Counted from the first letter of the stretch, positions 5,236-54,662 are shown. The stretch: DNA of 64,000 nucleotides from an uncultured Butyrivibrio sp. (GCA_947167765.1 CAMVJI010000002.1:494-64493), one strand, 5' to 3'. Made by a program: numbers and translations. Notes: generated from the letters alone by a model not told the origin.

Positions 5236-6519
5236 TTGAGAGTTCTTTGGGTATGTAATATCATGCTTCCGGCTTATGCCATAGCACACAACATGGATTA
5301 TTCCAGCAGGGAGGGGTGGCTGTCCGGATGTCTTAACAGAATAGCTGAAGGGAAAAAGGGCGATGAAAAGATCGACCTTGGAATATGCTTTCCTTCCTAT
5401 GGCGCTATTTCCAGCTCCAGTGAAGTGATAGACGAAATTACATATTATGGTTTCAGGGAGGACTTGAATCACCCCGAGGTATATGACGGAACTGTGGAAA
5501 ACAGGTTCCATGTGATCCTGGATGATTTTAAACCTGATATTGTGCATATTTTTGGCACGGAGTTTCCACATACCCTGGCTGTCATCAGGGCTTTTGGAAG
5601 ACCTGAGAGAGTTCTTCTTGGAATCCAGGGAGTCTGCAGCGCCATTGCCAGGGAGTATATGGCTGAAATTCCAGAGGAAGTTCAGGCATCTACAACCTTT
5701 AGGGACAGACTTAAGGAAGATTCTTTAAAACAGCAGCAGGAGAAGTTCAAGGTAAGGGCTGAGTATGAGAGAGAATCCATCATGCTCACAGGAAATATCA
5801 CAGGAAGGACTGCCTTTGACAAAAAAGAGACTTCTGACATAAATCCTGATGCAAGATATTTTGAGATGAATGAGACCATGCGCCCCTGCTTTTACATGGG
5901 CAAGTGGAGTGAGAAAAAGGCCCAGCCCCACAGTATCTTTTTATCCCAGGGAGATTATCCCCTTAAGGGATTTCATTTTATGCTTCAGGCTATGCCAATA
6001 CTACTGGAAAAATATCCTGATGCACATCTATATGTGGCAGGCAATAACATTATTGGAAAGGGTAAGAGCAAGTACCCATATTTCCTGCGGGCCAGCGCCT
6101 ATGGCAAGTATTTAAAGAGCCTTATTGGTAAGAACAAATTAAAGAAAAAAGTGACCATGCTCGGCATTTTGGATGAACAGGCCATGAAGGAACAGTTTTT
6201 AAAGAGCAGCGTCTTTGTCTGCCCTTCAATTGTTGAGAACTCTCCTAATTCCCTTGGAGAGGCGATGCTCCTTGGTGTTCCTATAGTTGCTTCAAATGCT
6301 GGAGGGATACCCAGTATGCTAACAGAAAATAAGGATGGTCTTCTTTTTGAAAAGGGAAATCCACAAGACCTGGCAGGAAAGATCCTTCAGATCTGGGATG
6401 AGCCAGTGATCGCGGCAGTTTACGGAGACAATTCCAGCAGCCACGCAAGGCTGACCCATAATCCAGATGCCAACTACAAGAGGCTTTTGGAAATATATAA
6501 CGAGATCATCAAAGAGTAA
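5236..6519 (+). CDS. GT4 (GT-B) glycosyltransferase
   Basis: TTG start with AGGGG RBS. C-terminal ENSPNSLGEAMLLGVPIVASNAGG (EX7E) motif. Confidence 0.85.
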   Translation: MRVLWVCNIMLPAYAIAHNMDYSSREGWLSGCLNRIAEGKKGDEKIDLGICFPSYGAISSSSEVIDEITYYGFREDLNHPEVYDGTVENRFHVILDDFKPDIVHIFGTEFPHTLAVIRAFGRPERVLLGIQGVCSAIAREYMAEIPEEVQASTTFRDRLKEDSLKQQQEKFKVRAEYERESIMLTGNITGRTAFDKKETSDINPDARYFEMNETMRPCFYMGKWSEKKAQPHSIFLSQGDYPLKGFHFMLQAMPILLEKYPDAHLYVAGNNIIGKGKSKYPYFLRASAYGKYLKSLIGKNKLKKKVTMLGILDEQAMKEQFLKSSVFVCPSIVENSPNSLGEAMLLGVPIVASNAGGIPSMLTENKDGLLFEKGNPQDLAGKILQIWDEPVIAAVYGDNSSSHARLTHNPDANYKRLLEIYNEIIKE

Positions 6520-39549: not shown

Positions 39550-40484
39550 TGCATTATAATGTTGTGGTTTTTGGAGTAAAAGATACATCTGAGAACATCA
39601 TAGAATTTATCCAGAGCGAGATCTGCAAGGTGGATCTTGTTATTACCATTGCCCCCAAGGTTTTAGAGCACAACCAGGTTTCGGGCTTTAAAGGCCTTAG
39701 CTTTCTTACTGACAAGTTTGGCATTCCTGTATTTGAGGCTGACAGTTATTTTCTGAATGATGAAAAGACCACTGCTTTCATGAATGAGAACACCTTTGGC
39801 ATCGGTATTGTCATGGGATGGCAGAGGCTCATTCCTAAGGAAGTGCTTGATAAGTTTAATCCTGGAATATTTGGATTCCATGGAAACTGCGGATATCTGC
39901 CTTTTGGAAGAGGAAGGTCTCCCCTTAACTGGTCAATTATCCTTGGAGACAGCAGATTTAATCTCAATCTGTTTAAATATGATGAGAAGGCTGACAGCCC
40001 CAATGTATTTGCTACGGAGATGTTCCAGATAAACGAGCATGACGACATAAGGACTGCTCAGTACAAGAACATGATGTGTTCTAAAAACCTCATCAAAAAA
40101 CTCCTTACCACCTACCTTGAGACTGGAACAGTTAATATCAGGACTGATTCAAAAGACTTTGATTCATGGTACAATAAACGTACGGCCAAGGACGGAAAGA
40201 TAGATTTTACAGACAGGACAAGAAATATCTACAACCTCATAAGGGGCGTCGCAGCACCTTTCCCTGGAGCCTTCTGCTATGCAGATGTTGAGGACGATGC
40301 TCACAAGGTAACTGTCTGGCAGGCTCATCCCTTTGACGAGATGATGGATCTTTCAGCCTTTGCGCCGGGAGAGATAGTAGATATTTTTGATGGCAAGCTT
40401 GTAGTAAGGACTGTTGACGGGTCACTGCTTATCGACAAGTATGAGTGCCAGACGGAGTTAAAAAAGAAAGTGATCTTAAAGTAA
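39549..40484 (+). CDS. Formyltransferase-like protein (Fmt/ArnA N-terminal fold), probable sugar N-formyltransferase
   Basis: GWQRLIP, FH...LPFGRGRSPLNWSI, KR..DGKIDF and YNLIRGVAAPFPGAF motifs. Confidence 0.75.
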   Translation: MHYNVVVFGVKDTSENIIEFIQSEICKVDLVITIAPKVLEHNQVSGFKGLSFLTDKFGIPVFEADSYFLNDEKTTAFMNENTFGIGIVMGWQRLIPKEVLDKFNPGIFGFHGNCGYLPFGRGRSPLNWSIILGDSRFNLNLFKYDEKADSPNVFATEMFQINEHDDIRTAQYKNMMCSKNLIKKLLTTYLETGTVNIRTDSKDFDSWYNKRTAKDGKIDFTDRTRNIYNLIRGVAAPFPGAFCYADVEDDAHKVTVWQAHPFDEMMDLSAFAPGEIVDIFDGKLVVRTVDGSLLIDKYECQTELKKKVILK

Positions 40485-40487
40485 GTT

Positions 40488-41597
40488 ATGAAGAGTATTG
40501 CGTTTCACTTAAATTGCCTTGTGCAGGGCGGCGCTGAGAGGGTTGTATCAAACCTTGCCAATCAGTTTGCCAAAGAAGGCATCAAGGTATATGTGGCCAC
40601 AGAGTGGTATGACAAGGACGAGTTTGAACTGGACGAGAGAGTAACAAGAGTCCACGTAGGACTAAGGCCTGAAGATGAAAAGAAAAACAGGATCACAAAG
40701 TTCTTTTTAAGGATCAAGTACCTTAAAGAATTTGTAAAAGAGTATCATCCTGACGTGCTGGTGGCTTTCGCTCAGAGAGCTAATTACAGAGCTTTGATGG
40801 CTGCCGGAAAGAGCGACATTCCTGTTGTAATATCCATAAGGACCGATCCTGTTGGTCATTACGACGCCATCTCTGATAAGATCCAGATCAAATGGCTCTT
40901 TGACAGGGCAGCAGGCTGTGTGTTCCAGACAACAGGTCAGAAAGAGTTTTTTAAACCTTACCTTCAGGACAATTCAGCCATTATATTAAACCCTGTTAAC
41001 CCAAAATATTTTGATGTTAAGAGAGTTGATAATCCGGAAAAGGCTGTTGTACATCACGCAAGGCTTGTAGACTTCAAAAATCAGCCGCTTTTGTGCGAGG
41101 CTTTTGTGGAGGTACATAAAAAGCATCCTGACTATGTTCTTAAGATATACGGACCTGATTCCTTTGACGGAACAAAAGAGATCCTTGATAAGATAATTGC
41201 AGATAATCACGCTGAGGATTACATCCTTTTAATGGGCGGTTCTGATTCTCTTGAAAAAGAGATAATAAAGGGCGAAGTTTATGCCTTTACCTCTGACTGG
41301 GAGGGAATGCCTAATTCTCTTTTGGAAGCCATGGCAATGGGAATGCCTATTGTTGCAACTGACTGCCCCTGCGGAGGCCCCAGGACTGTTATGAGAGATG
41401 GTGAAAACGGACTTCTTGTTCCGATCAAGGACAAGGATGCCATCGTAAATGGTCTGTGCAGGCTTATTGAAGATAAAGAGCTTGCAACAAGGCTTGGAAA
41501 AGAGGCTGCGAAGATAGAAGAGATCACCAATGGCGATGCTATCTTCGTGCAGTGGAGAGACTATCTGGACAAGGTAATTGCTGATTTTAAGAAGTGA
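40488..41597 (+). CDS. GT4 glycosyltransferase (PglH/PglJ-like)
   Basis: GGAERV, FQT and EGMPNSLLEAMAMG..TDCPCGGP motifs. Confidence 0.86.
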   Translation: MKSIAFHLNCLVQGGAERVVSNLANQFAKEGIKVYVATEWYDKDEFELDERVTRVHVGLRPEDEKKNRITKFFLRIKYLKEFVKEYHPDVLVAFAQRANYRALMAAGKSDIPVVISIRTDPVGHYDAISDKIQIKWLFDRAAGCVFQTTGQKEFFKPYLQDNSAIILNPVNPKYFDVKRVDNPEKAVVHHARLVDFKNQPLLCEAFVEVHKKHPDYVLKIYGPDSFDGTKEILDKIIADNHAEDYILLMGGSDSLEKEIIKGEVYAFTSDWEGMPNSLLEAMAMGMPIVATDCPCGGPRTVMRDGENGLLVPIKDKDAIVNGLCRLIEDKELATRLGKEAAKIEEITNGDAIFVQWRDYLDKVIADFKK

Positions 41598-41615
41598 TTT
41601 TATAGGAGAAATAAA

Positions 41616-42377
41616 ATGTTTTCATTTGATGATTACAGAGAGATATTAAGGATAATCAAGGCTACAGGCCGCTATGCAACTTATGAAGAGGCTCTTTCAA
41701 AAGACGAATTCATCATCATGCGCCATGACGTAGAGTACTCAGTTGAGAGGGCTTATGCTCTTTCTAAGGTTGAGGAGAGCATGGACTTCAGATCCACATT
41801 CTTCTTCCAGTGGACCAACAATTCCTACAATATCCTCTCACGTAAGAACAGGGATATTCTTACTGATATGCATGAGAGAGGTCAGAATATAGGTCTTCAT
41901 TTTGCCCTTAATGGCATGACAGATATGAAGCTTGTAAGAGAGAGGATCAAGCAGGAGATCGACATGCTCAGCAACATGCTTGGATTTGAGATCAACTCTT
42001 TTTCCATTCACAGGCCTTCACCAAGTGTTCTTGCTGAGAATATCAAGCTTAAGGGCATTTTGAATGCATATCAGGACGAGTTCTTTTCTTTTGACCCAAA
42101 GGCTACACCTGAGTCCAAGCTTGAAGTCAAGTATATGTCTGATGCGAACCACATCTGGCGCTATGGATATCCTGATGAAGAGACCATAAATGGGCATAAA
42201 AAGATCCAGATCCTTACCCATCCATTTGCATGGTGCAAGAAGGGCTACGATAACCTCGATAACTACAAGGCTCTTGTAAATGAGAAGTACAAAGAGCTTA
42301 TTGATTCAATAGACAACGAATGTAAGGACTTTGGTCCACTTAGAGATGAGTTTGATAAAAAGATCTTTGATATGTGA
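41616..42377 (+). CDS. Polysaccharide deacetylase-like protein (WbmS-like)
   Basis: MRHDVE, STFFF, IGLHF, SIHRP, YMSD and QILTHP motifs. Confidence 0.65.
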   Translation: MFSFDDYREILRIIKATGRYATYEEALSKDEFIIMRHDVEYSVERAYALSKVEESMDFRSTFFFQWTNNSYNILSRKNRDILTDMHERGQNIGLHFALNGMTDMKLVRERIKQEIDMLSNMLGFEINSFSIHRPSPSVLAENIKLKGILNAYQDEFFSFDPKATPESKLEVKYMSDANHIWRYGYPDEETINGHKKIQILTHPFAWCKKGYDNLDNYKALVNEKYKELIDSIDNECKDFGPLRDEFDKKIFDM

Positions 42378-42399
42378 TCAGTCATTTGGAGAAGCTTAA

Positions 42400-44343
42400 A
42401 TGTGTGGAATCTGTGGATACGTATCTAAAAAAAGAATAACAGAAGAACAGCTCAGGATAATGAATGACACCATGTACCACAGAGGTCCGGATGATTCAGG
42501 TGTAGAGATTTATGCTGGAACTAATGATTACTTCGTGGGATTTGCGCAAAGGCGCCTTGCGATCCTTGATCTTTCACCCCTTGGACATCAGCCCATGCAT
42601 TCAGAAAATGGCAGAGTATCTGTGGTTTTCAATGGTGAGATATACAACTTCCTTGAGCTTAGGGAAGAGATAAGTGATTATGAGTTCAAGACCAACTGCG
42701 ATACAGAGGTGATAATTGCAGCTTACCTTAAGTGGGGCATTGACATGGTTGACCACATCCATGGCATGTTCGCCATAGCTCTTTATGACAGAGCAAGTAG
42801 CGAAGTATTTCTCATTCGCGACAGGATAGGCAAGAAGCCACTGTTTTACTGGATTGACGGTGGGAACATTGTCTTTGGCTCAGAGCTTAAACCTATCATT
42901 AAGTGCCCTGGCTTTAAGGGGGAGATCAGAAGGCAGCTCCTTCCAAGATATCTGTACAATCAGTATATCAGCGCTCCTGAGACCATTTTTACAGATGTGT
43001 ACAAATTGGAGGCTGGATCAGTACTACGGTTTAAAGACGGCGAGATCAAAAAGTGGAAGTACTGGGATATAAAGAAAGTATATAAAGAAAAGTCCATGGA
43101 TCCTGTTGGCAGCTATGAGGAGGCCAAAGAGGGACTTAAGCTCAGGCTTAAGAACAGCGTTGCAGCCCGTATGATCGCTGATGTGCCCCTTGGAACTTTT
43201 TTGTCAGGTGGCTATGATTCATCTCTTGTGACTGCCATGGCCCAGGAGCTTTCTGATGAACCCATAAAGACTTTCTGTATAGGTTTTGATGTGCCCAGCT
43301 ACAATGAGGCAGAGTATGCCAAGGAGATCGCAAACTATCTTGGCTGTGACCATACAGAGCTTTACATCACAGAAAAAGAGATGTTTGATCTGGTTGCCAG
43401 TATTCCTCAGTACTACGACGAACCATTTGCAGACAACTCAGAGATACCTTCCATGCTTGTAAGCAAGCTTGCAAAAAAGGACGTTACTGTAGCCTTATCA
43501 GGTGATGGGGGCGATGAGTTTTTCTGCGGCTATAATGTCTATGACAATGTATGGCAGGCTCAGAGACTGGAGATTCCAGGAGCTATTGTAAATGCCATTG
43601 GAGGGATCCCAGTAGGATCTGGAAAACTTATAGATAAGATGCCCTTCAGGGTTAAGGTCATCGCTGGAAATAGAGATCCTGAAACCAAGACACAGCTGGT
43701 GTCAGAAGGGTACGTTAAAGCGGCACATGCTTTTATTTCAGGAAAAGAGACACTGGACATACCTGTTTCAGCTCTTGACTATATAAATACAGATTTTAAT
43801 CTGGGTATTAATGAAGCTCCTGTTTTATATCCTATGGAGAGCCTGTATTCTACCAGGGATTTCCAGGTAAAGAGGATGCTTTTGGATATGGATACTTATC
43901 TTCCTGATGATATCCTTGTGAAAATGGACAGGGCATCCATGAAATATTCTCTTGAAAACAGATGTCCAATCATGGACACAGAGGTTATGGAGTACTCATT
44001 CAGGATCCCTCACAAGTTCAAGTATCACAACAAAGACAAGAAGCATATCCTTAAGGATATTGCTTATGATTACATTCCAAGACAGATGCTTGAACGCCCC
44101 AAGACAGGTTTTGGCGTTCCTATGGATGCATGGCTTCGTGGCCCATTAAAAGAGGCGCTTCTTGACTACAGCAGCACCTCCTACTTAAAGAAACAGGGAG
44201 TATTTGACCCTGAATATGTATCAAGATTTATAAGCGATTATGTAGCTAAAGGAGATGCAGGCCCGGCAACTGGAGCTAATTTCAGTAAGATTGCCTGGTC
44301 ATTCTATATCTTCCAGCAATGGTATAATTATTACATGGTTTAA
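42400..44343 (+). CDS. asnB: Asparagine-synthetase-like glutamine amidotransferase (probable uronic acid amidation)
   Basis: N-terminal MCGICG, HRGPD, RLAILDL, FNGEIYN, LSGGYDSS, SGDGGDE and KTGFGVP motifs. Confidence 0.88.
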   Translation: MCGICGYVSKKRITEEQLRIMNDTMYHRGPDDSGVEIYAGTNDYFVGFAQRRLAILDLSPLGHQPMHSENGRVSVVFNGEIYNFLELREEISDYEFKTNCDTEVIIAAYLKWGIDMVDHIHGMFAIALYDRASSEVFLIRDRIGKKPLFYWIDGGNIVFGSELKPIIKCPGFKGEIRRQLLPRYLYNQYISAPETIFTDVYKLEAGSVLRFKDGEIKKWKYWDIKKVYKEKSMDPVGSYEEAKEGLKLRLKNSVAARMIADVPLGTFLSGGYDSSLVTAMAQELSDEPIKTFCIGFDVPSYNEAEYAKEIANYLGCDHTELYITEKEMFDLVASIPQYYDEPFADNSEIPSMLVSKLAKKDVTVALSGDGGDEFFCGYNVYDNVWQAQRLEIPGAIVNAIGGIPVGSGKLIDKMPFRVKVIAGNRDPETKTQLVSEGYVKAAHAFISGKETLDIPVSALDYINTDFNLGINEAPVLYPMESLYSTRDFQVKRMLLDMDTYLPDDILVKMDRASMKYSLENRCPIMDTEVMEYSFRIPHKFKYHNKDKKHILKDIAYDYIPRQMLERPKTGFGVPMDAWLRGPLKEALLDYSSTSYLKKQGVFDPEYVSRFISDYVAKGDAGPATGANFSKIAWSFYIFQQWYNYYMV

Positions 44344-44356
44344 AAGGAGAAGTAAT

Positions 44357-44599
44357 ATGACAAGAGAAGAGATATTTGGAAAGTTAAATGAAGTGTTCAG
44401 AGATGTTTTCGAGGATGACGACATAACTGTTAGTGATGCCACAACTGCAGATGACATCGAGGACTGGGATTCTCTTGAGCACATCAATCTCATAAATGCT
44501 ATTGAGCAGGAATTTGGCATCAAGTTTAACATGGGACAGATCGTGTCAATGAAAAACGTTGGCGAGATGGTAAGCATTATCGAGAGCAAGCTTTCATAA
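44357..44599 (+). CDS. Acyl carrier protein
   Basis: 80 aa acidic protein with the WDSLEHINL phosphopantetheine site. ATG 44357 follows AAGGAG; the track ORF start at 44255 is too long. Confidence 0.88.
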   Translation: MTREEIFGKLNEVFRDVFEDDDITVSDATTADDIEDWDSLEHINLINAIEQEFGIKFNMGQIVSMKNVGEMVSIIESKLS

Positions 44600-44616
44600 G
44601 CTTTTAAGGAGCAGTT

Positions 44617-45009
44617 ATGAAGATTCATCACGTTGGTTACCTGGCCAAAAACCTTGAAAAGTCTGCAGCCAAATTTTTGGAGCTGGGCTACGAGGTTGAA
44701 AGACCATGTAAGTACGATCCGATCCGCAAGATAAATATTGAATTCTTAAAAAACGGGGATTACAGAGTTGAACTCATTCAGCCCATGAGCGAGGAATCGC
44801 CCATGTTCCCGCTTCTTAAGAGATTTAAGAACACACCCTATCACTTCTGCTATGAGGTGGAGGATGTTGAAATAGCTGCAAAAGAGCTGTCTGAAAAAGG
44901 CTACACTGTTATTCAGGAGCCAGAGATAGCACCTTGTATCGATGACAGAAGAGTTGTTTTTATGAACAACATCAGTATGGGGATCATAGAACTTGTCGAA
45001 ACCAGATAA
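44617..45009 (+). CDS. VOC/glyoxalase superfamily protein (methylmalonyl-CoA epimerase-like)
   Basis: IHHVGY, VELIQP, YHFCYEV and IELVE metal-ligand pattern. Confidence 0.8.
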   Translation: MKIHHVGYLAKNLEKSAAKFLELGYEVERPCKYDPIRKINIEFLKNGDYRVELIQPMSEESPMFPLLKRFKNTPYHFCYEVEDVEIAAKELSEKGYTVIQEPEIAPCIDDRRVVFMNNISMGIIELVETR

Positions 45010-46210
45010 CCAGAAAAAACCGCATATTGCCATGTACATTGGATCCCTGCAAAAGGGTGGCGCTGAGAGGGTTATGAGTAATCTCTGTGACTACTTTTTT
45101 GAACAGGGCTACAGGGTTACCCTTGTGACAACATACCTGGCAGCCAATGAGTATGAGGTAAAACATGCTGCCTGGAAGAGCGTACCTGCAGGTGCAGAAA
45201 ACGCTACGCTGGTGGCTGATCTTGATGAGAACCCTGTATGGGTGGATCTTTCTGGCGGTGAGAAAAATGGTATCCAGAGAGTCTTTTCAGCTCTTCTTAA
45301 GTCTGAGCAGAAGGACAGGATCACCAATTTCAGATTAAGACATAAAAAGCTCAGGGACATATGGCGCAGTTTAAAACCAGACGTGGTCCTTAGCTTTATT
45401 GGTAAGAACAATATAATGGCTCTTTCAACAGCCACAAGAGAGGGGATCAAGGTAGTTGTTTCCGTCAGGGCAGACCCTGACTGGGAGTATTCTACTACAG
45501 CCCTGAAGGCAGGAATGCTTTCAAACTTTGGCAAGGCAGCAGGTGTTGTTGTACAGTCCAACGGAGCAAAAGAAAAATTCCCGGGCTACATTCAAAAGAA
45601 GTGCACTATTCTTCCAAACTCCATGGATCTTTCCTTTGTGAGAAAGCGCTATGTAGGTGAGCGTGAAAACACCATAGTCATGGTGGCAAGACTTCATGAG
45701 AACAAGAATCAGGGTCTTGTTATGGAGGCCTTTAAAGAGGCTACAAAAGACAGATTTAAAGATTATAAGCTCGTATTTTACGGAGACGGTCCAGACAGAC
45801 TTAAGCTTCAGCACAAGGCCACTTCCATGGGAATTGATGACAGGGTGGAGTTTAAGGGCAATGTAAAGCACGTGGCCGAGCACATAGAAAAGGCCAAGCT
45901 ATTTGTCCTTGCATCAGGCCATGAGGGAATGCCTAACTCCCTTATAGAAGCCATGTCCTTGGGACTGGCCTGCATATCAACGGACTGTCCCTGCGGAGGA
46001 CCAAGGGACCTTATCACAGATGGTGTGAATGGACTTCTGGTTCCTGTAGGCGATGTTAAGGCATTGACTAATGCTATGGTAAAGGTACTTGAAGATGAGG
46101 ACTTTGCTAACAAGCTTGGCAGTGCAGCAACAAGCGTCCAGAAAAGATTTGCTCCTGACATTGCCAATGCTATGTGGAAGGAATATTTCGACAAGATAAT
46201 AAGACAGTAA
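44993..46210 (+). CDS. GT4 glycosyltransferase (paralog of 40488-41597)
   Basis: GGAERV and EGMPNSLIEAMSLG..TDCPCGGP motifs. TTG start overlaps the VOC gene. Confidence 0.85.
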   Translation: MSKPDNQKKPHIAMYIGSLQKGGAERVMSNLCDYFFEQGYRVTLVTTYLAANEYEVKHAAWKSVPAGAENATLVADLDENPVWVDLSGGEKNGIQRVFSALLKSEQKDRITNFRLRHKKLRDIWRSLKPDVVLSFIGKNNIMALSTATREGIKVVVSVRADPDWEYSTTALKAGMLSNFGKAAGVVVQSNGAKEKFPGYIQKKCTILPNSMDLSFVRKRYVGERENTIVMVARLHENKNQGLVMEAFKEATKDRFKDYKLVFYGDGPDRLKLQHKATSMGIDDRVEFKGNVKHVAEHIEKAKLFVLASGHEGMPNSLIEAMSLGLACISTDCPCGGPRDLITDGVNGLLVPVGDVKALTNAMVKVLEDEDFANKLGSAATSVQKRFAPDIANAMWKEYFDKIIRQ

Positions 46211-46229
46211 ATAGAAAACAGATAAATGA

Positions 46230-46256
46230 AAAACCTCGGCGCTCTGCCGAGGTTTT
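46230..46256. terminator. Bidirectional intrinsic terminator
   Basis: AAAACCTCGGC-GCTCT-GCCGAGGTTTT, a perfect 11-bp stem 20 nt after the stop at 46210. Confidence 0.85.
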
Positions 46257-46278
46257 AGTATATCTACTGAGTGGGGGA

Positions 46279-46514
46279 ATCCACAGCCGCTTCTTGAATT
46301 ATAAGCCTTGTGGAATGAATATCAATAGCCTTTCGCGGCATATCCTCGTTGAAGGTGAGTCAGTGGGGACGTTACAGTTTGACTCACTGGGGAGCTGTGA
46401 GTCAAACTGTAACGTCCCCACTGACTCACCTCCAACTGCGGTATTCCACGGTGCTATTGACATTCATCCCACAAGACTTTTTTGGTGATCAAGCGGCCAT
46501 GGATGGGGACGCTA
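46279..46514 (-). other. Hairpin A: ssoA/Frpo-like single-strand origin or ssDNA promoter candidate (alternatively a structured ncRNA)
   Basis: 226-nt rod (46279-46504) whose helical mismatches are G.T on the minus strand. The 3' arm has GATATGCCGCGAAA (46331-46344), TTGATA (46320-46325), 16 nt, then unpaired TATAAT (46298-46303). TAGCGT lies at 46509-46514. Confidence 0.65.
46353..46431. repeat. Perfect 35-bp inverted repeat (REP-like doublet) forming the apex of hairpin A
   Basis: AGGTGAGTCAGTGGGGACGTTACAGTTTGACTCAC (46353-46387), a 9-nt loop, then the exact reverse complement (46397-46431). Each arm has its own GTGAGTCA/TGACTCAC stem. Confidence 0.9.
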
Positions 46515-46547
46515 TTCCGCACCATCGTGTTCGCTGTGACGTTAATT

Positions 46548-46814
46548 TAATACCCCTGACCACTTTGGACTCGTAGGTATTATGGCTTTTAAAAAATAGC
46601 GCTTTTTATTTTAATAAAGATAATACCCAAGGCTATCTTACAACTGTCAGGTATTAAAAACTGAATGTGGTTTGATAAAAACTTGCATAAATTGCAGAGG
46701 AAAGGTCATACCAATAGCCACTAACTGTTATTGTGGTATTAAAAGCGCCTAAAATATTTATTTAAAGCAAGAAATCCATAAGACCAGCCATTAGTAATTC
46801 GTGAAGTGGTATTA
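46548..46814. repeat. Array of four 35-36 bp palindromic units TAATACC-N21/22-GGTATTA
   Basis: Units at 46548-46582, 46621-46656, 46706-46741 (TCATACC) and 46779-46814 (TAAGACC). Start spacing is 73, 85 and 73 nt, with AT-rich linkers. Confidence 0.75.
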
Positions 46815-47069
46815 GGTAGCTCATAATAGGGGGCAATCATCAAATCTTAAACAGCTCTGGGACAAGAATACTAGGGCAAGTCCGTAATGAGATTCGATAA
46901 CGGTTGATATTGCCCCAAATACTACGGACTAGAAGAAGGGAAAATGCTATACAGTCTGAATTTCACAAATAACGCCATCCTATTGGCATAATACCGAACA
47001 CCACAAAATGACGGCCCCAGATATGCCAAAAATCCCCGCTGGTAGCCAGCGCTCTTCATGCCACTCCCT

Positions 47070-47259
47070 GTTCATCCCCCGTTTGATTACCCAAAAACGT
47101 CCACCGGAAATCGGTCAAGTGGACCATGGAATACCGCAGCAGATACGGATGGTGGGATCAGCTGAATTGCTGAAAACACCTAGTATCTGCGAGGATATGC
47201 CGTGAAAGCTACTTGGGCGATTTACGGTGGACGTTATAATTCAAAGAGCGGGGATGAAC
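47070..47259 (+). other. Hairpin B: second ssoA/Frpo-like element, homologous to hairpin A, on the opposite strand
   Basis: 190-nt rod closed by GTTCATCCCC/GGGGATGAAC. The 3' arm has GATATGCCGTGAAA (47194-47207), TTGGGC (47213-47218, opposite GGTCAA), 16 nt, then unpaired TATAAT (47235-47240). Confidence 0.65.
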
Positions 47260-47264
47260 CCATA

Positions 47265-49058
47265 TTATCTTACTGATACCTTGATATGGCTGTTCTTGTT
47301 CTTGTAGTCGCTACTGATCTCCAGCTTGTAGGTGGCATTGCCATCGGCGTCTTCAGACACTTTTTCAAAGCCCTGAAGGGTGTAGAAATCTTTTACCATC
47401 TTGTTCTTGGCAGTAGGATAGTAGTAGCCATAGATGGTTTTAATGCCCTTTTCAAGGGCTTTTTCGTGAAGTGCATCCATCATTGCAAATTCCATATCTC
47501 TTTTAAGAACGCGGCAGCTCATGAGCCACAGGTCGATGTGGAGCTCGTCGCCTTTTATGCTTCCGGCAATGAGAGATACGATACCATTATCGCCAAACTT
47601 ATCTGATAGGCGCCCATAAAGTGTTATGCACTTTGGATCATTGGCCGTTTTTTCAATGTCATCGGGGCTGTAGCGTTTGGTGGTCAAATTGAACTGATTA
47701 CTCTTGTTGGTGAGCTGGGCTATCCTTGGAATATAGAGCTTTTCAAAAGGAGCAATCTCAGCCTCCATATCAAGGGAAGTGAGGTACTCTCCGTAATCAG
47801 CAAAGCTCTCCTCAGCTTCAGTGCGCTTTTTGTTGGCAATGTACATTTCGTTTCTTTTCCTGTCATCCTCAGATACAGAGGTGGCTTCAAAGAAACCTGA
47901 GTGATCAAGGATCCTTATGTAGTGCTCAGGAGTGTCTATTTCTGGGACTGCAGCCCCCTTTACCTGTCCTTCGATGATGGCTCTTTCTGCAGGATTGTCA
48001 TCTACAAATACCAGGGAATCAGGTAGTATGTTCAGCTCTTTGGCAATTGACTTAAGGTTCTCGCTCTTTGGATCCCAATTAGCTCTTATGGCCACAAAGT
48101 CGTCGGGCTTAAGGATTCCATCTGGGTGAGAAAGGCCTGCCATGGCATTTTCTTCCTCGTTCTTGGAATCAACGGTTAAAAGGACACCGATGTCCTTTTG
48201 CATTTTTACATAGTGCTGGAACTCTGCGTACACCTGACCAAGGTTGGTTTCCTGACCAATCTCAATCCCGTCAACGCCATCGTCTCCAATGACGCCTCCC
48301 CAAAGAGTATTATCAAGATCAAGTACAAGACCCTTTTTGTTCCTGCCATAGATTGACTTGATAATGTTGGCTACGCTGAAGCTAAGGGTTGGGATTGCTG
48401 GGATGCACAGGGCGTATTTGTACATGTGCCAGGTAAGTGGATCAGACCACTCATCAAGGCCATAGCAGCTTGAAAGGTAGTTTATATCGTTGATAAAAAA
48501 GCTTGTAGAGTTATCAGAAGCCTGCCTTGCAAACTGAGCAAATTTCTCATTTAATCTGTTTATGAACGATACTCTTCCGTGGACATCGTAGAAGTCACGG
48601 TTTCCCATAAGCCTGTAAAAGGGAGCTTCAAAATTGTTCTGGATAACAGGGCAGTGATAAGTCTCTATCAGTTTTTTCCACATGGTCTCAAAGTGCTGGT
48701 AAGTCTTATCAAGCTTATCCTCAACAGTAGCAGCATCGTCGTCCATTGTGGGATAGTCTGTAATGTTGCGGTTACTTGTGTGTATAAAGATCACATCAGG
48801 AGAAAATGAAGAAAGCTCCTCTCCAAACATGGCATCCTGCCAGTACTGTCCATATTCTGATTCATAGAATTCTGGTTCAATACCGTAGTTTAATAGAAAA
48901 AGCTCCATAACCTTTATGATATCGTGAGTGGTTGAACCTCCAAGAACCGCGATCTTCTTGTGAATGCGCTGGCTACCATCAGCTAAAAGAGCTTTCTTTA
49001 TGCTCTTTTTCTTTTTCATAATGTAGTTGCTATCAAAAGGATATTCTAGTTCTTTCAT
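47265..49058 (-). CDS. FkbH-like HAD-IIIC protein (glyceryl-ACP synthase family)
   Basis: LVLDLDNTLWGG, SKN, ANWDPKS, VFVDDNPAE, QLTNKSNQFNLT, DKFGDNG and WLMSCRVL motifs, plus an extra N-terminal domain. Confidence 0.88.
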   Translation of the reverse strand: MKELEYPFDSNYIMKKKKSIKKALLADGSQRIHKKIAVLGGSTTHDIIKVMELFLLNYGIEPEFYESEYGQYWQDAMFGEELSSFSPDVIFIHTSNRNITDYPTMDDDAATVEDKLDKTYQHFETMWKKLIETYHCPVIQNNFEAPFYRLMGNRDFYDVHGRVSFINRLNEKFAQFARQASDNSTSFFINDINYLSSCYGLDEWSDPLTWHMYKYALCIPAIPTLSFSVANIIKSIYGRNKKGLVLDLDNTLWGGVIGDDGVDGIEIGQETNLGQVYAEFQHYVKMQKDIGVLLTVDSKNEEENAMAGLSHPDGILKPDDFVAIRANWDPKSENLKSIAKELNILPDSLVFVDDNPAERAIIEGQVKGAAVPEIDTPEHYIRILDHSGFFEATSVSEDDRKRNEMYIANKKRTEAEESFADYGEYLTSLDMEAEIAPFEKLYIPRIAQLTNKSNQFNLTTKRYSPDDIEKTANDPKCITLYGRLSDKFGDNGIVSLIAGSIKGDELHIDLWLMSCRVLKRDMEFAMMDALHEKALEKGIKTIYGYYYPTAKNKMVKDFYTLQGFEKVSEDADGNATYKLEISSDYKNKNSHIKVSVR

Positions 49059-49106
49059 TCTTATCTCCGAAATGTAGTGTTTTTAAGGGGAATTTAAGTC
49101 TGTTTC

Positions 49107-49115
49107 ATCATATCA
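49107..49115 (-). promoter_or_regulatory. Putative extended -10 promoter for the FkbH-like gene
   Basis: The minus strand reads TG-A-TATGAT about 50 nt upstream of the ATG. Confidence 0.45.
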
Positions 49116-49130
49116 CATTTTCACTTAGGT

Positions 49131-49158
49131 TTGTTTATACCATAGAAAATGATATAAT
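49131..49158 (+). promoter_or_regulatory. Putative promoter for the asnB2-MBOAT-SGNH operon
   Basis: TTGTTT (49131-49136), then TG-A-TATAAT (49150-49158). Confidence 0.6.
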
Positions 49159-49206
49159 TCATTTGATACTAGGGCCTTTGGCCTTGGGAATTGTGAAAGG
49201 AATCAT

Positions 49207-51090
49207 ATGTGCGGGATCGCAGGACTTTTGAAGTTTAAGGGCGACGTCAGGGGCAACATCCAGAAGATGAATGAAAGGATGCTCCACAGAGGCCCTGACG
49301 ACGGCGGTATTTATATAAGTGAAGATGGCAGCGTGGCGCTTGGTCACAGGCGCCTTTCTATTGTGGATCTTTCTAAGAATGGTGCACAGCCTTTTGTGTC
49401 GGCATCTGGCAGGAACATAATGGTATATAACGGCGAGATATACAATGCTGGAGAGCTAAAAAAAGACCTTGAAAAAGAGATCTCTTTTCGCAGTACCTCA
49501 GACACAGAAGTGCTTATCGAAGCAATAGAAAAGTATGGAATAGACAGGACTCTTGAAAAGATCAAGGGAATGTTTGGCTTTGCTGTTTTTGATAAAGAAA
49601 AAAGGACAGTCACCCTTGCCCGTGACAGGATAGGGGAAAAGCCCCTTTACTACGGAATGGTAAACGGAGCATTTGTGTTTGCATCCGATATAGGCTGCAT
49701 CAGAGTGTTAGATGATTTTACCAATGGCATAAGTACAGATGTACTGGACATATACTTCGAGGATGGTTATATTCCATCTCCATATTCGATCTACAATGAT
49801 ATCTACAAGCTTGAGCCTGGCAAGTACCTTACTGTTAATGTTGACAGTTTGGAGACTTCGCAAAAAACCTACTATTCTCTTAAGAATGTAGCTTATAAAG
49901 GACAGCATGACAGGTTCAAGGGAAGCTTTGAGGAAGCCTCCCTGGAGCTTGAAAGGCGACTTAAGGATTCTATAAAAGGTCAGATGGTTGCGGATGTTCC
50001 TCTTGGAGCATTTCTTTCTGCCGGAATAGACAGTTCAACTGTTGTATCTCTCATGCAGTCTATTGCTCCTGGTAAGGTTCGCACCTTTACCATTGGCATG
50101 AACGACGATAAGTACAATGAGGCTGTTTATGCAAAAGAGATAGCACAGCATCTGGGGACTGACCACACAGAGCTTTATATCACAGAGGATGACGCCAAGG
50201 CAGTTATCCCAAAACTCCCATTTATGTTTGGTGAGCCCTTTGCGGATTCTTCCCAGATCCCAACATATCTGGTCAGCAAGATGACAAGAGATCATGTCAC
50301 TGTGTCGCTTTCAGGTGATGGTGGAGACGAGCTCTTTTGCGGATATAATTCCTACAGGTCAGTCAGCAGAGTCTGGAATAAGATAAAAAAGATCCCTTAT
50401 CCTTTGAGGAAGGCGTTAAGTGAAACCCAGCTTCTCTTTGCTGGAAGCGATATAACCGGGGATCCGGGAAAAGAGGTTAAGTACCTCAAGGCAAAATATA
50501 TGGGAGCAAGATCTCCCTATGAAGTTCACAAGTTTGAGCATGAGACAGATCCTTTGATAGGACAGATTGCCCTAAAAAAGGGCACTGCCAAATATAAGTG
50601 TATGGACATTCCAAAGGACTTTCTTGGGGAGGTCAATCACGAGGTCATGCTCATGGATATGCTTTTGTACCATCCGGAGGATATTCTTGTTAAGGTTGAC
50701 AGGACAGCTATGGCGGTATCCCTTGAGACTAGAGTTCCAATGCTTGACAGGGACGTCGTGGACTTTGCCTTTAGTCTTCCCATCGAGTATTTAAGGGATG
50801 ACAAGACTGGCAAAAAGATACTCAGAGATGTATTATACCGATATGTGCCAAAAGAGATGATGGAACGCCCCAAGAAGGGATTTTCCATTCCAATAAGCAA
50901 GTGGCTCCTGGATAGTGACCTTAGGCAGTGGGCTGAGGAGCTTTTAGACAGAGACAAGATAAGGCAGCAGGGAATTCTTGATGCCGATGTTGTTCATAAG
51001 ATATGGACAGACTTTACTACAAGGGGAATATACAGAGTGCAGATATGGTACATTCTGATGTTCCAGCAGTGGTATGAGGAAGAGTTTTAA
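49207..51090 (+). CDS. asnB: Second asparagine-synthetase-like glutamine amidotransferase
   Basis: MCGIAG, HRGPD, RLSIVDL, YNGEIYN, LSAGIDSS, SGDGGDE and KKGFSIP motifs. Confidence 0.88.
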   Translation: MCGIAGLLKFKGDVRGNIQKMNERMLHRGPDDGGIYISEDGSVALGHRRLSIVDLSKNGAQPFVSASGRNIMVYNGEIYNAGELKKDLEKEISFRSTSDTEVLIEAIEKYGIDRTLEKIKGMFGFAVFDKEKRTVTLARDRIGEKPLYYGMVNGAFVFASDIGCIRVLDDFTNGISTDVLDIYFEDGYIPSPYSIYNDIYKLEPGKYLTVNVDSLETSQKTYYSLKNVAYKGQHDRFKGSFEEASLELERRLKDSIKGQMVADVPLGAFLSAGIDSSTVVSLMQSIAPGKVRTFTIGMNDDKYNEAVYAKEIAQHLGTDHTELYITEDDAKAVIPKLPFMFGEPFADSSQIPTYLVSKMTRDHVTVSLSGDGGDELFCGYNSYRSVSRVWNKIKKIPYPLRKALSETQLLFAGSDITGDPGKEVKYLKAKYMGARSPYEVHKFEHETDPLIGQIALKKGTAKYKCMDIPKDFLGEVNHEVMLMDMLLYHPEDILVKVDRTAMAVSLETRVPMLDRDVVDFAFSLPIEYLRDDKTGKKILRDVLYRYVPKEMMERPKKGFSIPISKWLLDSDLRQWAEELLDRDKIRQQGILDADVVHKIWTDFTTRGIYRVQIWYILMFQQWYEEEF

Positions 51091-52638
51091 ATGAGTGTTA
51101 CATCCTTTAGTTTTTTGTGCTTTTTTGCACTGGTTTTGATCATATATTACGCGCTCCCTGTGTTGACCAAGGGGCGCGGTCAGTGGGTCGTACTTCTTTT
51201 GGCGAGTATGGCCTATTATCTGTTATCTGGCAATGAGGTTCTGATAATCTATCCAGTAATTTCTTCGTTTATCACCTGGGGGCTCCTCCAGATCCTTTCA
51301 AAGACATCAGAAGAAAACGTAAAGGTAAGGCGCATGCTCCTTGTGCTTGAACTTGTAACGCTCCTTGGAATACTGGTGGCATTTAAGTACACCAAGCTTA
51401 TTCATAAGGGATCAATAGTTCCGCCTTTAGGTTTGTCTTTTTATACCTTTATCCTTCTTGGATATTTTGTAGAAGTATACAACGGACTAAGTACTGCTAA
51501 TAAGAGCTTTTTAAAGACGGCTCTGTATGGCATGTATTTCCCGGTTATGATATCAGGTCCTATTTTTCAGATAAGGGAAACGGGAGAGCAGTTCTTTGAA
51601 AGGCACAGGCTGGATTACAAAAATCTTACCTTTGGCCTTTTTAGGATGCTCTGGGGATTTTTCAAAGAGCTTGTTATTTCCGAGAGGCTTGCAGTTATTG
51701 TAAACACAATCTACAACGATGACACTGCTTATCCAGGAACTTACATATGGATCGGTACAGTGTGCTTTGCGCTTCAGCTCTACACTAATTTTTCCGGATG
51801 CATGGACATAGTGATTGGTATTTCAGAGACCTTTGGCATCGTGCTTCCTGAGAATTTCAGAACTCCCTTTTTTGCAAAAAATATCAGCGAGTACTGGCGC
51901 AGATGGCATATCACTCTTGGTGTGTGGATGAGGGAAAATGTCTTTTACCCGCTGCTCAGGACCAGGATGATCACTGGACTTGGCAAGGCGCTTAAGGGTA
52001 AGCTCGGCAAAAAGAAAGGTAAGCAGTACACAACTTATGTGGCTATGTTTATCCTTTGGTTCTCTGTAGGTATGTGGCATGGCGGAGAGATGAAGTATGT
52101 TATCGGATCTGGCCTTCTTCACTGGGCATACATTGTTCTGGGCGAGATAACACTGCCGTTTTTTACCTGGCTCTTTGCAGAGAAAATGCATATGGATCTA
52201 AAGAGCAAGGCGGCGGATGTATTCAGGGTTATAAGGACTTTCTTCTTTGTATGCATCGGCGATCTGTTTTTCAGGGCAGATAATGTTCCCCACGCATTAA
52301 GAATGATGGCGGAGGGCGTATCAAAGTTCAATCCCTGGGTTTTAGTTGATGGAAGCATCTTTGAGCTTGGACTTGACTTTGTGGAGATAGGGATATTAGT
52401 TGTTTCTCTTATTATCCTGGTGGTGGTTTCAACTGTGCAGTACAGGATGGAACTTAGCGCGGATGGAGCTTTGGAAGGATCAAGATTTAAGGGATACTCA
52501 AATGTAAGAGAATATCTGGCATCTAAAGGCACTGCCATCAGATGGATAGTGATAATAGCATTTTTATTCTACTGCATATTGCTGGCTGAATATGGCCCTG
52601 GCTATAGCGCGGCTGAATTTATATATAAGGATTTTTAA
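51091..52638 (+). CDS. MBOAT family O-acyltransferase (AlgI/DltB-like) with a C-terminal FIYKDF motif
   Basis: PLGLSFYTF, YFP..SGPI, NFSG, ENFRTPF, YWRRWHITL and GMWHG motifs. Ends in EFIYKDF. Confidence 0.9.
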   Translation: MSVTSFSFLCFFALVLIIYYALPVLTKGRGQWVVLLLASMAYYLLSGNEVLIIYPVISSFITWGLLQILSKTSEENVKVRRMLLVLELVTLLGILVAFKYTKLIHKGSIVPPLGLSFYTFILLGYFVEVYNGLSTANKSFLKTALYGMYFPVMISGPIFQIRETGEQFFERHRLDYKNLTFGLFRMLWGFFKELVISERLAVIVNTIYNDDTAYPGTYIWIGTVCFALQLYTNFSGCMDIVIGISETFGIVLPENFRTPFFAKNISEYWRRWHITLGVWMRENVFYPLLRTRMITGLGKALKGKLGKKKGKQYTTYVAMFILWFSVGMWHGGEMKYVIGSGLLHWAYIVLGEITLPFFTWLFAEKMHMDLKSKAADVFRVIRTFFFVCIGDLFFRADNVPHALRMMAEGVSKFNPWVLVDGSIFELGLDFVEIGILVVSLIILVVVSTVQYRMELSADGALEGSRFKGYSNVREYLASKGTAIRWIVIIAFLFYCILLAEYGPGYSAAEFIYKDF

Positions 52639-53735
52639 TGAACAGAAAACAGATAATAACTTCAATAATTTTCATAGTGCTGGTGCTGTTTTTGGGACTT
52701 CACCTTACTTACATCCTTCGAACCAACGGAGATGTTAAGGACAGGTTTGTAGGTTTCTATGCGGAAAAGAATGATACCATCGATGCGGTATTTATTGGCT
52801 CAAGCCCCCTTCCTGCCTGTGTTGCAACGCCAAAGATCTACAAAGAGAGCGGGATCACAATTTACCCTTTGTCTTCTAACATGCAAAGACCAGTTGCCAC
52901 CAAATATCTTGTGGAAGAGGCACTAAAGAGCCAAAAGCCAGATCTTTTCATATTCGAGATGAGGATGTGGACTGCGGCAGATGAGGATCTTCTTGGAAAT
53001 ATGGCCCACACAAGGGAAGTTACTGACAACATGAAGTATTCTGTCAACAGGATTAAGACCATCAATGCAATGGTTGATGACAAAAACGACAGGATAAATT
53101 ACTACTTTGATATTTTCAAATATCATTCAAACTGGAAGACATTGTTCTTGTGGAGTCAGTTAAGAACTGCGTTTTACTGTTACCCGGAAGATCTTAAGGG
53201 AAGCCTTGTTGAGACAGAAGTAGGTCCCTGCGATCCGCCTGTCATGTTGCCAGAAAGTGAAAAGGAACCTATTCCATCTGAACAGGAAGAGTACCTCAAT
53301 GACCTTCTTGATTATCTTGATGAAAATAACATCAACGCACTTTTTGTTGTAACACCTTATGATGCCAAAGAACATGAACAGAGACGCTTTAACTATATGG
53401 CTGACATCATTTCAAAAAGAGGATATAACTTCCTTGATATGAACAGGCATTTAGATGAGATCGGAATAGATTTTTCCAGAGATATAAAAGACTATGGAAC
53501 CCATACCAATGTGGCGGGAGCTGCAAAGGTAACGGACTTCCTTACACAGTATCTTATCGAGAATTATAGGGATAAAGGCATAGCCCTTTCTGATGATCAC
53601 AGAGAAGATCCAAGGTACAAGTCTTGGGATAAGGCCTATGACAAGTGGCAGACAGAATATGAAGAGGGACTTGATACTATTGACAGTAACCTTGAGAATG
53701 GTATCTACTATGAGCTGCCTGACGAAGATGACTGA
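52638..53735 (+). CDS. Membrane-anchored SGNH/DltD-like extracellular acyltransferase
   Basis: One N-terminal TM, a VFIGSS nucleophile block and a DYGTHTN..GA DxxH block. Translationally coupled to the MBOAT. Confidence 0.7.
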   Translation: MNRKQIITSIIFIVLVLFLGLHLTYILRTNGDVKDRFVGFYAEKNDTIDAVFIGSSPLPACVATPKIYKESGITIYPLSSNMQRPVATKYLVEEALKSQKPDLFIFEMRMWTAADEDLLGNMAHTREVTDNMKYSVNRIKTINAMVDDKNDRINYYFDIFKYHSNWKTLFLWSQLRTAFYCYPEDLKGSLVETEVGPCDPPVMLPESEKEPIPSEQEEYLNDLLDYLDENNINALFVVTPYDAKEHEQRRFNYMADIISKRGYNFLDMNRHLDEIGIDFSRDIKDYGTHTNVAGAAKVTDFLTQYLIENYRDKGIALSDDHREDPRYKSWDKAYDKWQTEYEEGLDTIDSNLENGIYYELPDEDD

Positions 53736-53747
53736 GATGCTCACTTA

Positions 53748-53756
53748 TGGTATAAT
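53748..53756 (+). promoter_or_regulatory. Extended -10 promoter for the GT11/ABC operon
   Basis: TG-G-TATAAT, 33 nt upstream of ATG 53790, which has a GGAGG RBS. Confidence 0.55.
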
Positions 53757-53789
53757 TTCATATGTATATGCAATTTTGTCGGAGGGGAT

Positions 53790-54662
53790 ATGATAATAAT
53801 CCAGCTCAAGGGCGGACTGGGAAACCAGATGTTCCAGTATGCTCTTTACAGAGAATTACTTCATAGAGGAAAACAGGTCAAGATCGACGACGTAACGGGA
53901 TTTGAGAATGATAAGTTAAGGAAGCCTGTTTTGGATCGTTTTGGAATAGAGTATGAGAGGGCAACACCTGAAGAGGTAGTGGCCATCACTGATTCCAAAA
54001 TGGATATTTTTAGCCGTATAAGGCGTAAACTGACAGGCCGTAAGACCCACAGGATAGATGAGACTGAAGGTATCTTTGATCCCAAGATTTTAGAAGTTGA
54101 TGAAGCGTATCTGGTTGGCTACTGGCAGTCAGACAAGTACTTCACTTCACCAGAAGTTATCGAACATCTTCAGGAGACCTTTGCAAAGAGACCTCAGGAG
54201 ATAATGCATGACTCAGTCAGCTGGACTACCCTGCAGCAGATCGAGTGCAGCGAGTCTGTAAGTATTCACGTTAGACGTACAGATTATCTGGACGAAGAGC
54301 ACATCAAGATCCACAACCTGTGCTCAGCAAAATATTATAAAGACGCTATCAGCATGGTTAGGGAGAAGCATCCCAACGCTGTGTTCTTCATCTTTACCGA
54401 TGACAAAGAGTGGTGCAAGGAGCACTTTAAAGGTCATAATTTCATTAACGTAGAACTCCAGGAGGGCGAATTTACTGATGTTGCAGATATGCTCTTAATG
54501 AGCAGATGCAAGCACCACATTATAGCCAACAGCTCCTTTAGCTGGTGGTCAGCGTGGATCGGGGATTCTCCGGAGAAAATGGTCATCGCTCCAGCAAAGT
54601 GGATCAACAACAAAAAGATGGATGACATCTATACAGAGCGTATGACAAAGGTGGCAATTTAA
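53790..54662 (+). CDS. GT11 alpha-1,2-fucosyltransferase
   Basis: GGLGNQMFQY, GYWQSDKYF, IHVRRTDY, FTDD and IIANSSFSWW motifs. Confidence 0.9.
   Translation: MIIIQLKGGLGNQMFQYALYRELLHRGKQVKIDDVTGFENDKLRKPVLDRFGIEYERATPEEVVAITDSKMDIFSRIRRKLTGRKTHRIDETEGIFDPKILEVDEAYLVGYWQSDKYFTSPEVIEHLQETFAKRPQEIMHDSVSWTTLQQIECSESVSIHVRRTDYLDEEHIKIHNLCSAKYYKDAISMVREKHPNAVFFIFTDDKEWCKEHFKGHNFINVELQEGEFTDVADMLLMSRCKHHIIANSSFSWWSAWIGDSPEKMVIAPAKWINNKKMDDIYTERMTKVAI

Follow-up and report, generated by a model that had tools for sequence, protein, structure and literature searches.

The window analyzed here is a 64,000-nucleotide stretch from the genome of an uncultured Butyrivibrio species (GCA_947167765.1, CAMVJI010000002.1:494-64493). 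Between a GT4 glycosyltransferase gene on its plus strand and an FkbH-like gene on its minus strand lies a noncoding gap of 1,054 bp (46211-47264), and searches of the genome's own assembly (310 contigs, 79% complete) showed the gap in its entirety to be a copy of a dispersed noncoding repeat. This multicopy element is previously unrecognized. It consists of a hairpin whose sense strand is the minus strand (hairpin A), a core of short palindromes, and a hairpin whose sense strand is the plus strand (hairpin B). Each hairpin combines a block resembling RS_B, a motif of the ssoA single-strand origins of Gram-positive rolling-circle plasmids, with -35 and -10 hexamers (Table 1). Folded as single-stranded DNA, hairpin A (minus strand) reaches -90 kcal/mol (z = -15.8) and hairpin B (plus strand) reaches -55 kcal/mol (z = -5.5).

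Table 1. Features of the repeat element and of the genes beside it (positions in the window)
Feature	Position	Strand	Remarks
GT4 glycosyltransferase gene	44993-46210	plus	
Two-way intrinsic terminator	46230-46256		After the GT4 gene; left edge of the insertion site of the repeat element
Hairpin A, type A family member	46279-46504	minus	Strand given is the functional (sense) strand
-10 hexamer of hairpin A, TATAAT	46298-46303	minus	16-nt spacer; -12 paired, -11 to -7 within internal bubble
-35 hexamer of hairpin A, TTGATA	46320-46325	minus	3' (nontemplate) arm; begins 4 nt past the RS_B block
RS_B-like block of hairpin A, GATATGCCGCGAAAG	46330-46344	minus	3' arm, adjoins apex
Perfect 35-bp inverted repeat in the apex of hairpin A	46353-46431		Separate small REP-like palindrome
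RS_B pairing partner in hairpin A, TGGAATACC	46440-46448	minus	5' arm
TTGACA	46457-46462	plus	The -35 pairs with its minus-strand complement in the template arm
Template-arm side of the -10 bubble, GATCACCAAAAAA	46478-46490	minus	Conserved; noncomplementary to the -10
TAGCGT, proposed CS-6 (plus strand, ACGCTA)	46509-46514	minus	Chance hexamer particular to the locus, as judged from alignments
Core of the element	46515-47069		Shorter inverted motifs and, at 46548-46814, four palindromic units, each of two 7-nt arms ~21 nt apart
Small terminator-like hairpin, then T run	47037-47051	minus	~+32 to +46 of the predicted inward transcript from hairpin B
Hairpin B, type B family member	47070-47259	plus	Strand given is the sense strand
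RS_B pairing partner in hairpin B, TGGAATACC	47127-47135	plus	
RS_B-like block of hairpin B, GATATGCCGTGAAAG	47194-47208	plus	
Promoter of hairpin B: TTGGGC, 16-nt spacer, TATAAT	47213-47240	plus	
FkbH-like gene	47265-49058	minus	Hairpin B abuts its stop codon

A conserved hairpin family with promoter-like arms

We based the family statistics on 84 unique complete hairpins and the alignment on a set of 36. Covariation analysis (RNAalifold and pair counting) of 49 pairs found 96.2% of cells paired, compared with 33 to 40% when the partners were slid; 27 of the 49 pairs are altered on both sides, and none of 500 shuffles reached the observed values. Many of the double changes set type A hairpins apart from type B and are therefore inherited events, and more occur within the types and in the divergent copies from strains CB08 and MC2021. 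The hairpin structure is under selection. It is also biased toward one strand: the sense (promoter-bearing) strand folds better than its complement in 80 of the 84 hairpins, by a mean of 6.6 kcal/mol, and G-T pairs number 302 on the sense strand versus 158 on the complement.

Two blocks are invariant throughout the aligned set (36/36), TGGAATACCGCAG on the 5' arm and CGAGGATATGCCG(C/T)GAAAG on the 3' arm. Within the same set, the equally invariant TATGCCG(C/T)GAAA matches the published RS_B, 5'-TTATGCCGAGAAAATTT-3' (PMC4598088), at 11 of 12 positions. The motif TATGCCGNGAAA occurs 16 times in the genome, against a chance expectation of 1.4, and 15 of these occurrences are in the hairpins described here. 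Together the invariant blocks fold into an ATA/TAT helix, a G-A mismatch, and a CGTGG/CCGCG helix with an invariant T-G wobble, followed by unpaired GAAAG; one pair of the CGTGG/CCGCG helix covaries, being G-C in type A and A-T in type B.

Four nucleotides past the RS_B block, on the 3' arm, TTG occupies the -35 slot in 83 of the 84 hairpins. A preliminary description of the locus had pointed out that plus-strand TTGACA in hairpin A is the perfect complement of TGTCAA in the template arm; we confirmed this pairing, the TCAA/TTGA core of which is invariant in 36/36 hairpins. A spacer of 16 nt (71/84), which is paired and covaries with the opposite arm, leads from the -35 slot to a -10 that reads TACAAT or TATAAT in 57/84, its third base being the only variable -10 position. 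Where TAYAAT stands at the 16-nt spacing (55 hairpins), every minimum-energy fold pairs -12, and positions -11 to -7 are left unpaired in 93 to 100% of folds. These bubble bases face the conserved, noncomplementary stretch GAT(C/T)ACC(C)AAAAA, and the strand is paired again from about -1/+1, in the base stem. Because -11 to -7 are held unpaired opposite a noncomplementary stretch, the folded strand resembles an open promoter complex. The predicted start lies 7 nt past the -10, at template position ~46491-46492 in hairpin A.

The same preliminary description took TAGCGT, just outside hairpin A, for CS-6 (TAGCGT; PMC4598088), the sequence that ends the primer in ssoA. Its placement was correct: the hexamer lies 4 nt past the hairpin base (46504), at +18 to +23 from the predicted start, matching the earlier estimate. 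Its conservation among homologs had been set beforehand as a test, which we ran. When the 36 hairpins were aligned in the folding sense, TAGCG[TA] was found in hairpin A of the window alone (1/36), the others having ACAACA, GCCACA, or CCGCAC. It is in the 5' flank of two of the 84 unique complete hairpins, the window copy and a second (L064) that is the same locus in a metagenome; 3/84 hairpins have it anywhere and 1/84 in the apex. According to a whole-element alignment, the window copy is without ~90 nt present in every other copy between the hairpin base and the aligned hexamer, so that TAGCGT adjoins the base of hairpin A because of a copy-specific deletion; the hexamers aligned to it differ among copies (GAGCTA, GCGATA, GTGATA, and GCACTA). 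TAGCG[TA] occurs 25 times on the two strands of the window, giving P values of ~0.003 for a 15-nt tolerance window and 0.047 for a match anywhere in one hairpin. Because TAGCGT is unique to this locus and is not conserved among homologs, whether in flank, arms, or apex, the proposal that it terminates a primer is refuted. On these alignments it is a chance hexamer and no part of the device.

The degenerate TAGCCA reported near hairpin B was found where it had been placed, at 47043-47048 inside the small terminator-like hairpin. That small hairpin is present in just two of the eight copies covering the stretch in the whole-element alignment and is therefore not a family feature. For annotation, the lesson is that a lone hexamer match, such as one to CS-6, calls for comparison with homologous copies before it is trusted.

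Copies vary in the apex. The perfect 35-bp palindrome in the apex of hairpin A is in no other copy's apex and stands alone elsewhere in the genome. It belongs to a ~33-nt REP-like palindrome family scattered over the assembly (C28:7570-7602, C297:511-543, and C52:11838-11871), of which the apex of hairpin A holds an inverted pair. At the site on contig C28, a lone palindrome stands where a metagenome relative (L106) has a full 1.2-kb element. A second small palindromic repeat (~32 to 38 nt) forms the apex of some type A hairpins, for example, L002:418-628 (contig C160 of the genome), and also stands alone at many places (contigs C190, C21, C26, C54, C62, C70, C9, and C97). Hairpin apexes thus seem to be landing sites for small palindromes.

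Distribution of the element and of a related phage hairpin

The Butyrivibrio metagenome-assembled genome (MAG) contains at least eight elements, seven of them complete with hairpin, core, and hairpin, and the eight together hold 15 hairpins. In a prokaryote scan of one genome per species, the family was found in Butyrivibrio only: in the MAGs SIG344, SIG347, and RGIG8880 and in the isolates CB08 and MC2021. Clear copies were present in 2 of 24 other genomes of the genus, and 53 metagenome contigs carry the element. Across 400 genomes, each from a different genus of the family to which the window belongs, a relaxed motif had five single matches; three of these were folded, and none of the three forms the hairpin. 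Matches of the GTDB scan in Thermoplasmata, Aquificaceae, Paenibacillus, a Clostridia MAG, and OW818664 came without the hairpin or the full RS_B, and we rejected them as chance.

Elements are 0.7 to 1.4 kb in size and constant in order (minus-strand hairpin, core, plus-strand hairpin), with the hairpins 600 to 1,050 bp apart, and no open reading frame (ORF) within them is kept between copies. In MC2021 (L022:3360-3720), an unrelated GC-rich hairpin of ~360 nt takes the place of the left hairpin, and the right one belongs to the RS_B type. The core is made up of three to six units of short inverted arms spaced ~21 nt apart. The arms are uniform in each element but differ by subfamily: TAATACC/GGTATTA in the window, TTAGTACC/GGTACTAA in CB08, ACGTATAA/TTATACGT in a metagenome copy (L086), and a 10-nt arm of another sequence in MC2021. 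This pattern of uniformity and difference suggests that the core palindromes are putative binding sites for a protein supplied in trans. We found no autonomous form of the element. The 3.8-kb hairpin spacing of L086, considered as cargo or as such a form, was rejected because it reflects an IS21 insertion in the core (L086:2428-4407), encoding IstA, with rve and Mu-transposase C-terminal domains, and IstB.

Comparison of close strains revealed presence and absence of the element at the same site, with three sites on contigs of the MAG empty (C22, C42, and C28) and their counterparts filled (L027, L024, and L106). In one such pair (L027 versus C22), the terminal inverted repeats measure 18 bp and a terminator is duplicated over ~27 bp; the other two have neither terminal repeats nor a duplication. 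The ~27-bp terminator hairpin is present in two copies around the insertion (L027:4190-4225 and 5425-5465) and in a single copy in the empty site (C22:495-530). The duplication is unusually long and is possibly, alternatively, a recombination core.

Genes beside the elements are ordinary ones and include those for ClpX, adenylosuccinate synthetase, a GGDEF protein, a response regulator, and an ABC transporter. The neighboring genes are mostly convergent, and the element therefore lies directly after terminators. In the window, the element sits in a glycan locus flanked by asparagine-synthase-like paralogues of 647 and 627 amino acids (42400-44343 and 49207-51090), which also holds VOC protein, GT4, FkbH-like, and MBOAT genes. 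A search for tRNA and tmRNA genes found none.

We also searched viral contigs with a relaxed pattern in the permuted arrangement. It matched 51 of them, mostly by chance, and 16 small contigs (6.5 to 12.4 kb) belong together as a family, their matches being uniform in length. This family encodes a Zot-like assembly ATPase and a rolling-circle initiator and includes the Ralstonia filamentous phages RSM1 and RSM3 (Inoviridae, Habenivirus). The hairpin is located between the Zot-like gene and the initiator gene, in a large intergenic region; in RSM1 (L162; NC_008574), it is ~195 nt long and lies at 5702-5896 on the coding (packaged) strand, within the 886-nt intergenic region between ORF11 and ORF12. 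The sense strand of the hairpin is the strand with more long-ORF residues in 16/16 contigs. No palindrome array like that of the Butyrivibrio core was found in the RSM1 intergenic region, and the literature searched contained no description of a function for the RSM1/RSM3 hairpin. A Zot-like helper-phage candidate in the Butyrivibrio genome was rejected, as the sole match is a PhoH-type ATPase.

Possible function and competing explanations

Based on the membership, structure, motifs, strand bias, and distribution observed for the family, we infer that the RS_B-type module near the apex, formed by both arms, would bind host RNA polymerase, as the motif is thought to do in ssoA. The sigma-70-type -35, the paired 16-nt spacer, and the pre-opened -10 would then mimic an open promoter, and polymerase would start at the edge of the base stem, read the 5' arm as template, and exit into the core of the element. 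The predicted RNAs are plus-sense from ~46491 for hairpin A (minus strand) and minus-sense from ~47083 for hairpin B (plus strand), and they would serve as primers for complementary-strand synthesis or as transcripts. With two hairpins, one per strand, whichever strand turned single stranded would carry one active hairpin. The earlier claim that both hairpins initiate inward follows from the promoter geometry, provided that they act in single-stranded form. Overall, we consider it somewhat probable that each hairpin is a polymerase entry site on single-stranded DNA, with its start near the base stem and its direction inward.

Several observations weigh against this proposal, and its main weakness is context, with chromosomal copies and no replicon or helper found. 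The copies lie between ordinary chromosomal genes and not on a plasmid, conjugative element, or phage. The 79%-complete genome yielded no Rep_trans (PF02486) initiator and no inovirus genes, in a search that did not extend to other Rep families or relaxases, and the strict family motif gave no matches in viral contigs. About a quarter of the 84 hairpins are without a good -10, and the RSM1/RSM3 hairpins differ from those of Butyrivibrio in having no evident TTG, 16-nt spacer, and TAYAAT and no bubble at -11. Finally, the same -35 and -10 would work in double-stranded DNA too, where they would point outward.

In a different account, the repeat is an ordinary miniature transposable element: the long palindromic ends would serve transposition or form cruciforms, the -35 and -10 would be an outward promoter in double-stranded DNA, and the likeness to RS_B would be coincidental. 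The element is indeed dispersed, multicopy, and noncoding, close strains differ in whether a given site is filled, and the one clean filled/empty pair has the 18-bp terminal inverted repeats and the ~27-bp duplication. A promoter scan found TTGATA, 16 nt, and TATAAT (11/12 matches), and an outward transcript of hairpin A would end at the terminator at 46256-46230. However, just 13 of 82 outward flanks contain the terminal repeat motif, and terminators in the outward sense are found in 25 of 82 flanks versus 30 of 82 for the opposite sense, counts that also led us to reject, as a separate reading, an outward small RNA defined by promoter, terminal repeat, and terminator. Covariation of the spacer with the other arm is not needed by a purely double-stranded promoter, which also leaves unexplained the bubble starting exactly at -11 and the folding bias between strands. 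The RS_B block, its partner, and the wobble are, moreover, common to ssoA origins and the inovirus intergenic hairpin, and we regard the transposable-element account as unlikely.

The strong covariation and the G-U-compatible strand bias, along with the further hairpin-like units in the core, could also be read as signs of structured RNAs, for example, elements for RNA processing or stability or segments of a large noncoding RNA, transcribed from within the core and with the internal loops as RNA motifs. We think this quite improbable. An Rfam search of 40000-54000 gave no match even at the limit of the search (E ≤ 1), and no convincing sense-strand promoter leads into either hairpin, the matches in the core scoring just 9 of 12 and occurring no more often than expected by chance. 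The conserved positions instead follow the sigma-70 pattern, with TTG, a fixed 16-nt spacer, and T-A-x-A-A-T with its third base free. Furthermore, the invariant block corresponds to a motif known from the DNA of single-strand origins, and the inovirus hairpin lies in the noncoding origin region of a single-stranded DNA genome. We attach very little credence to a full CS-6 model restricted to the window copy, in which TAGCGT, by chance or through recent selection, would stop a primer of ~20 nt. The geometry fits, with the hexamer at +18 to +23, and CS-6 is reported to end the ssoA primer (PMC8860593), but in ssoA it lies in the terminal loop and not in flanking single-stranded DNA, 82 of the 84 family members are without the hexamer, and its position here is due to the ~90-nt deletion.

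Comparison with known systems

In ssoA, RS_B is loop distal and required for polymerase binding, and CS-6, in the terminal loop, ends a primer of ~20 nt (PMC8860593); RS_B is also found in ssoU, ssoT, and ssoW (PMC5703833). We took the classical ssoA primer geometry from secondary sources and folded the palA regions of pT181 and pE194 for comparison. Both form a TTTAT/ATAAA helix, an unpaired G opposite A, a CCGA/TTGG helix with a G-T wobble, and a GAAAA bulge. In both palA regions (pE194, L042 ~625-860; pT181, L041 3755-3975), TTG lies exactly 4 nt past the RS_B bulge, and in pE194, TATACT follows 16 nt past TTGCGT, in the same register as the Butyrivibrio promoter.

Like ssoA (palA of pT181, pE194, and pLS1/pMV158), the Butyrivibrio structures are long imperfect hairpins of one strand only, and they contain the RS_B motif TATGCCGNGAAA with the partner TGGAATA in the same local fold and register. 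What pT181, pE194, and Butyrivibrio share is a TAT/ATA helix, a G-A mismatch, CCGN/NTGG with a G-T wobble, a GAAA bulge, and TTG 4 nt later. The wiring differs. Plasmid RS_B is on the 5' arm near the base, and the helix beyond it leads to the apex, whereas in Butyrivibrio RS_B occupies the 3' arm, the apex closes the RS_B side, and the next helix runs through the promoter to the open base. Unlike ssoA, the Butyrivibrio hairpins have no CS-6 in the terminal loop, their -10 is pre-melted in the predicted folds, and they are chromosomal, multicopy, and paired on opposite strands, without a nearby Rep gene or double-strand origin. The fold comparison substantially supports a connectivity that is a circular permutation of ssoA. 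The inside-out order proposed in the preliminary description (RS_B, -35, -10, and CS-6 from the apex outward) therefore stands for RS_B, -35, and -10 and for the polarity but not for CS-6.

The polarity, with RS_B at the apex and polymerase running outward, would be that of Frpo and the reverse of that in ssoA, where RS_B is basal and polymerase moves toward the loop. The Frpo hairpin imitates a promoter in double-stranded form, including its -35 and -10, and transcription passes from it into the flanking single-stranded DNA (PMC11541004; PMC4595007). Like Frpo/ssi of F-like conjugative plasmids, the Butyrivibrio stem rebuilds a -35 and a -10, and the geometry appears similar, with the promoter on the 3' arm pointing to the hairpin base. 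On the other hand, the RS_B module stands where Frpo has an A+T-rich UP element, and the hairpins form a convergent pair within a noncoding repeat. They are intergenic in the chromosome and do not precede ssb, psiB, or antidefense genes in a leading region, and a blastn search of 72,556 plasmid records with hairpin B gave no match at E ≤ 0.01. The hairpins are members of neither ssoA nor Frpo because defining features of both, when tested, were not found in them.

The RSM1/RSM3 hairpins have the Butyrivibrio topology (partner GTGGAATAAA, apex, TTTATGCCGCGAAAG, stem) and a similar size (~190 nt). They differ in being GC rich, single copy in each genome, and part of a true single-stranded DNA replicon. 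As the phage hairpin has no obvious promoter or bubble, only the module and the wiring are common to both; its location in a single-stranded DNA genome supports a role on single-stranded DNA. The RSM1-type hairpin is a candidate minus-strand origin, one that may link Gram-negative inoviruses to Gram-positive ssoA.

Pneumococcal BOX and Correia elements are noncoding, dispersed, and modular, with end modules and variable internal units; they are intergenic, lie near gene ends, and can carry promoters. The Butyrivibrio element shares this dispersed, modular, noncoding design. It differs in being much larger, in having at each end a 200-nt hairpin with origin and promoter features, and in the arm sequence of its internal units, which varies between subfamilies.

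Plasmids, conjugative elements, and filamentous phages, all of which pass through an obligatory single-stranded stage, are the known settings of single-strand origins and single-stranded DNA promoters. To our knowledge, there is no prior family that joins rewired connectivity, a -10 open from -11, pairing on opposite strands, and noncoding amplification in a chromosome, and the literature searched contained no hairpin family with this combination. Tentatively, and with less confidence than we place in polymerase entry itself, we suggest that the RS_B fold may be an ancient, portable module for polymerase recognition on single-stranded DNA that exists in two wirings and has, in Butyrivibrio, been built into a new chromosomal element. 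In one wiring, RS_B would stand at the base and the primer would terminate in the loop (ssoA of Gram-positive rolling-circle plasmids); in the other, RS_B would stand at the apex and transcription would run outward (RSM-type inoviruses of Proteobacteria and Butyrivibrio). The Butyrivibrio element would then be strand symmetric and protein free, with two convergent hairpins activated by single-stranded DNA around an array of palindromes resembling binding sites, and it would fire upon exposure of either strand. Possible uses would include self-priming of a single-stranded mobile intermediate or reporting of single-stranded DNA.

If the hairpins do recruit polymerase on single-stranded DNA, they would offer a small natural model in which promoter recognition can be studied apart from DNA melting, and it would need explaining when, and for what reason, the chromosome turns single stranded at these sites. 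The ssoA origins of plasmids, the Frpo-type promoters of conjugative elements, and the origins of inoviruses would then be linked by one common motif.

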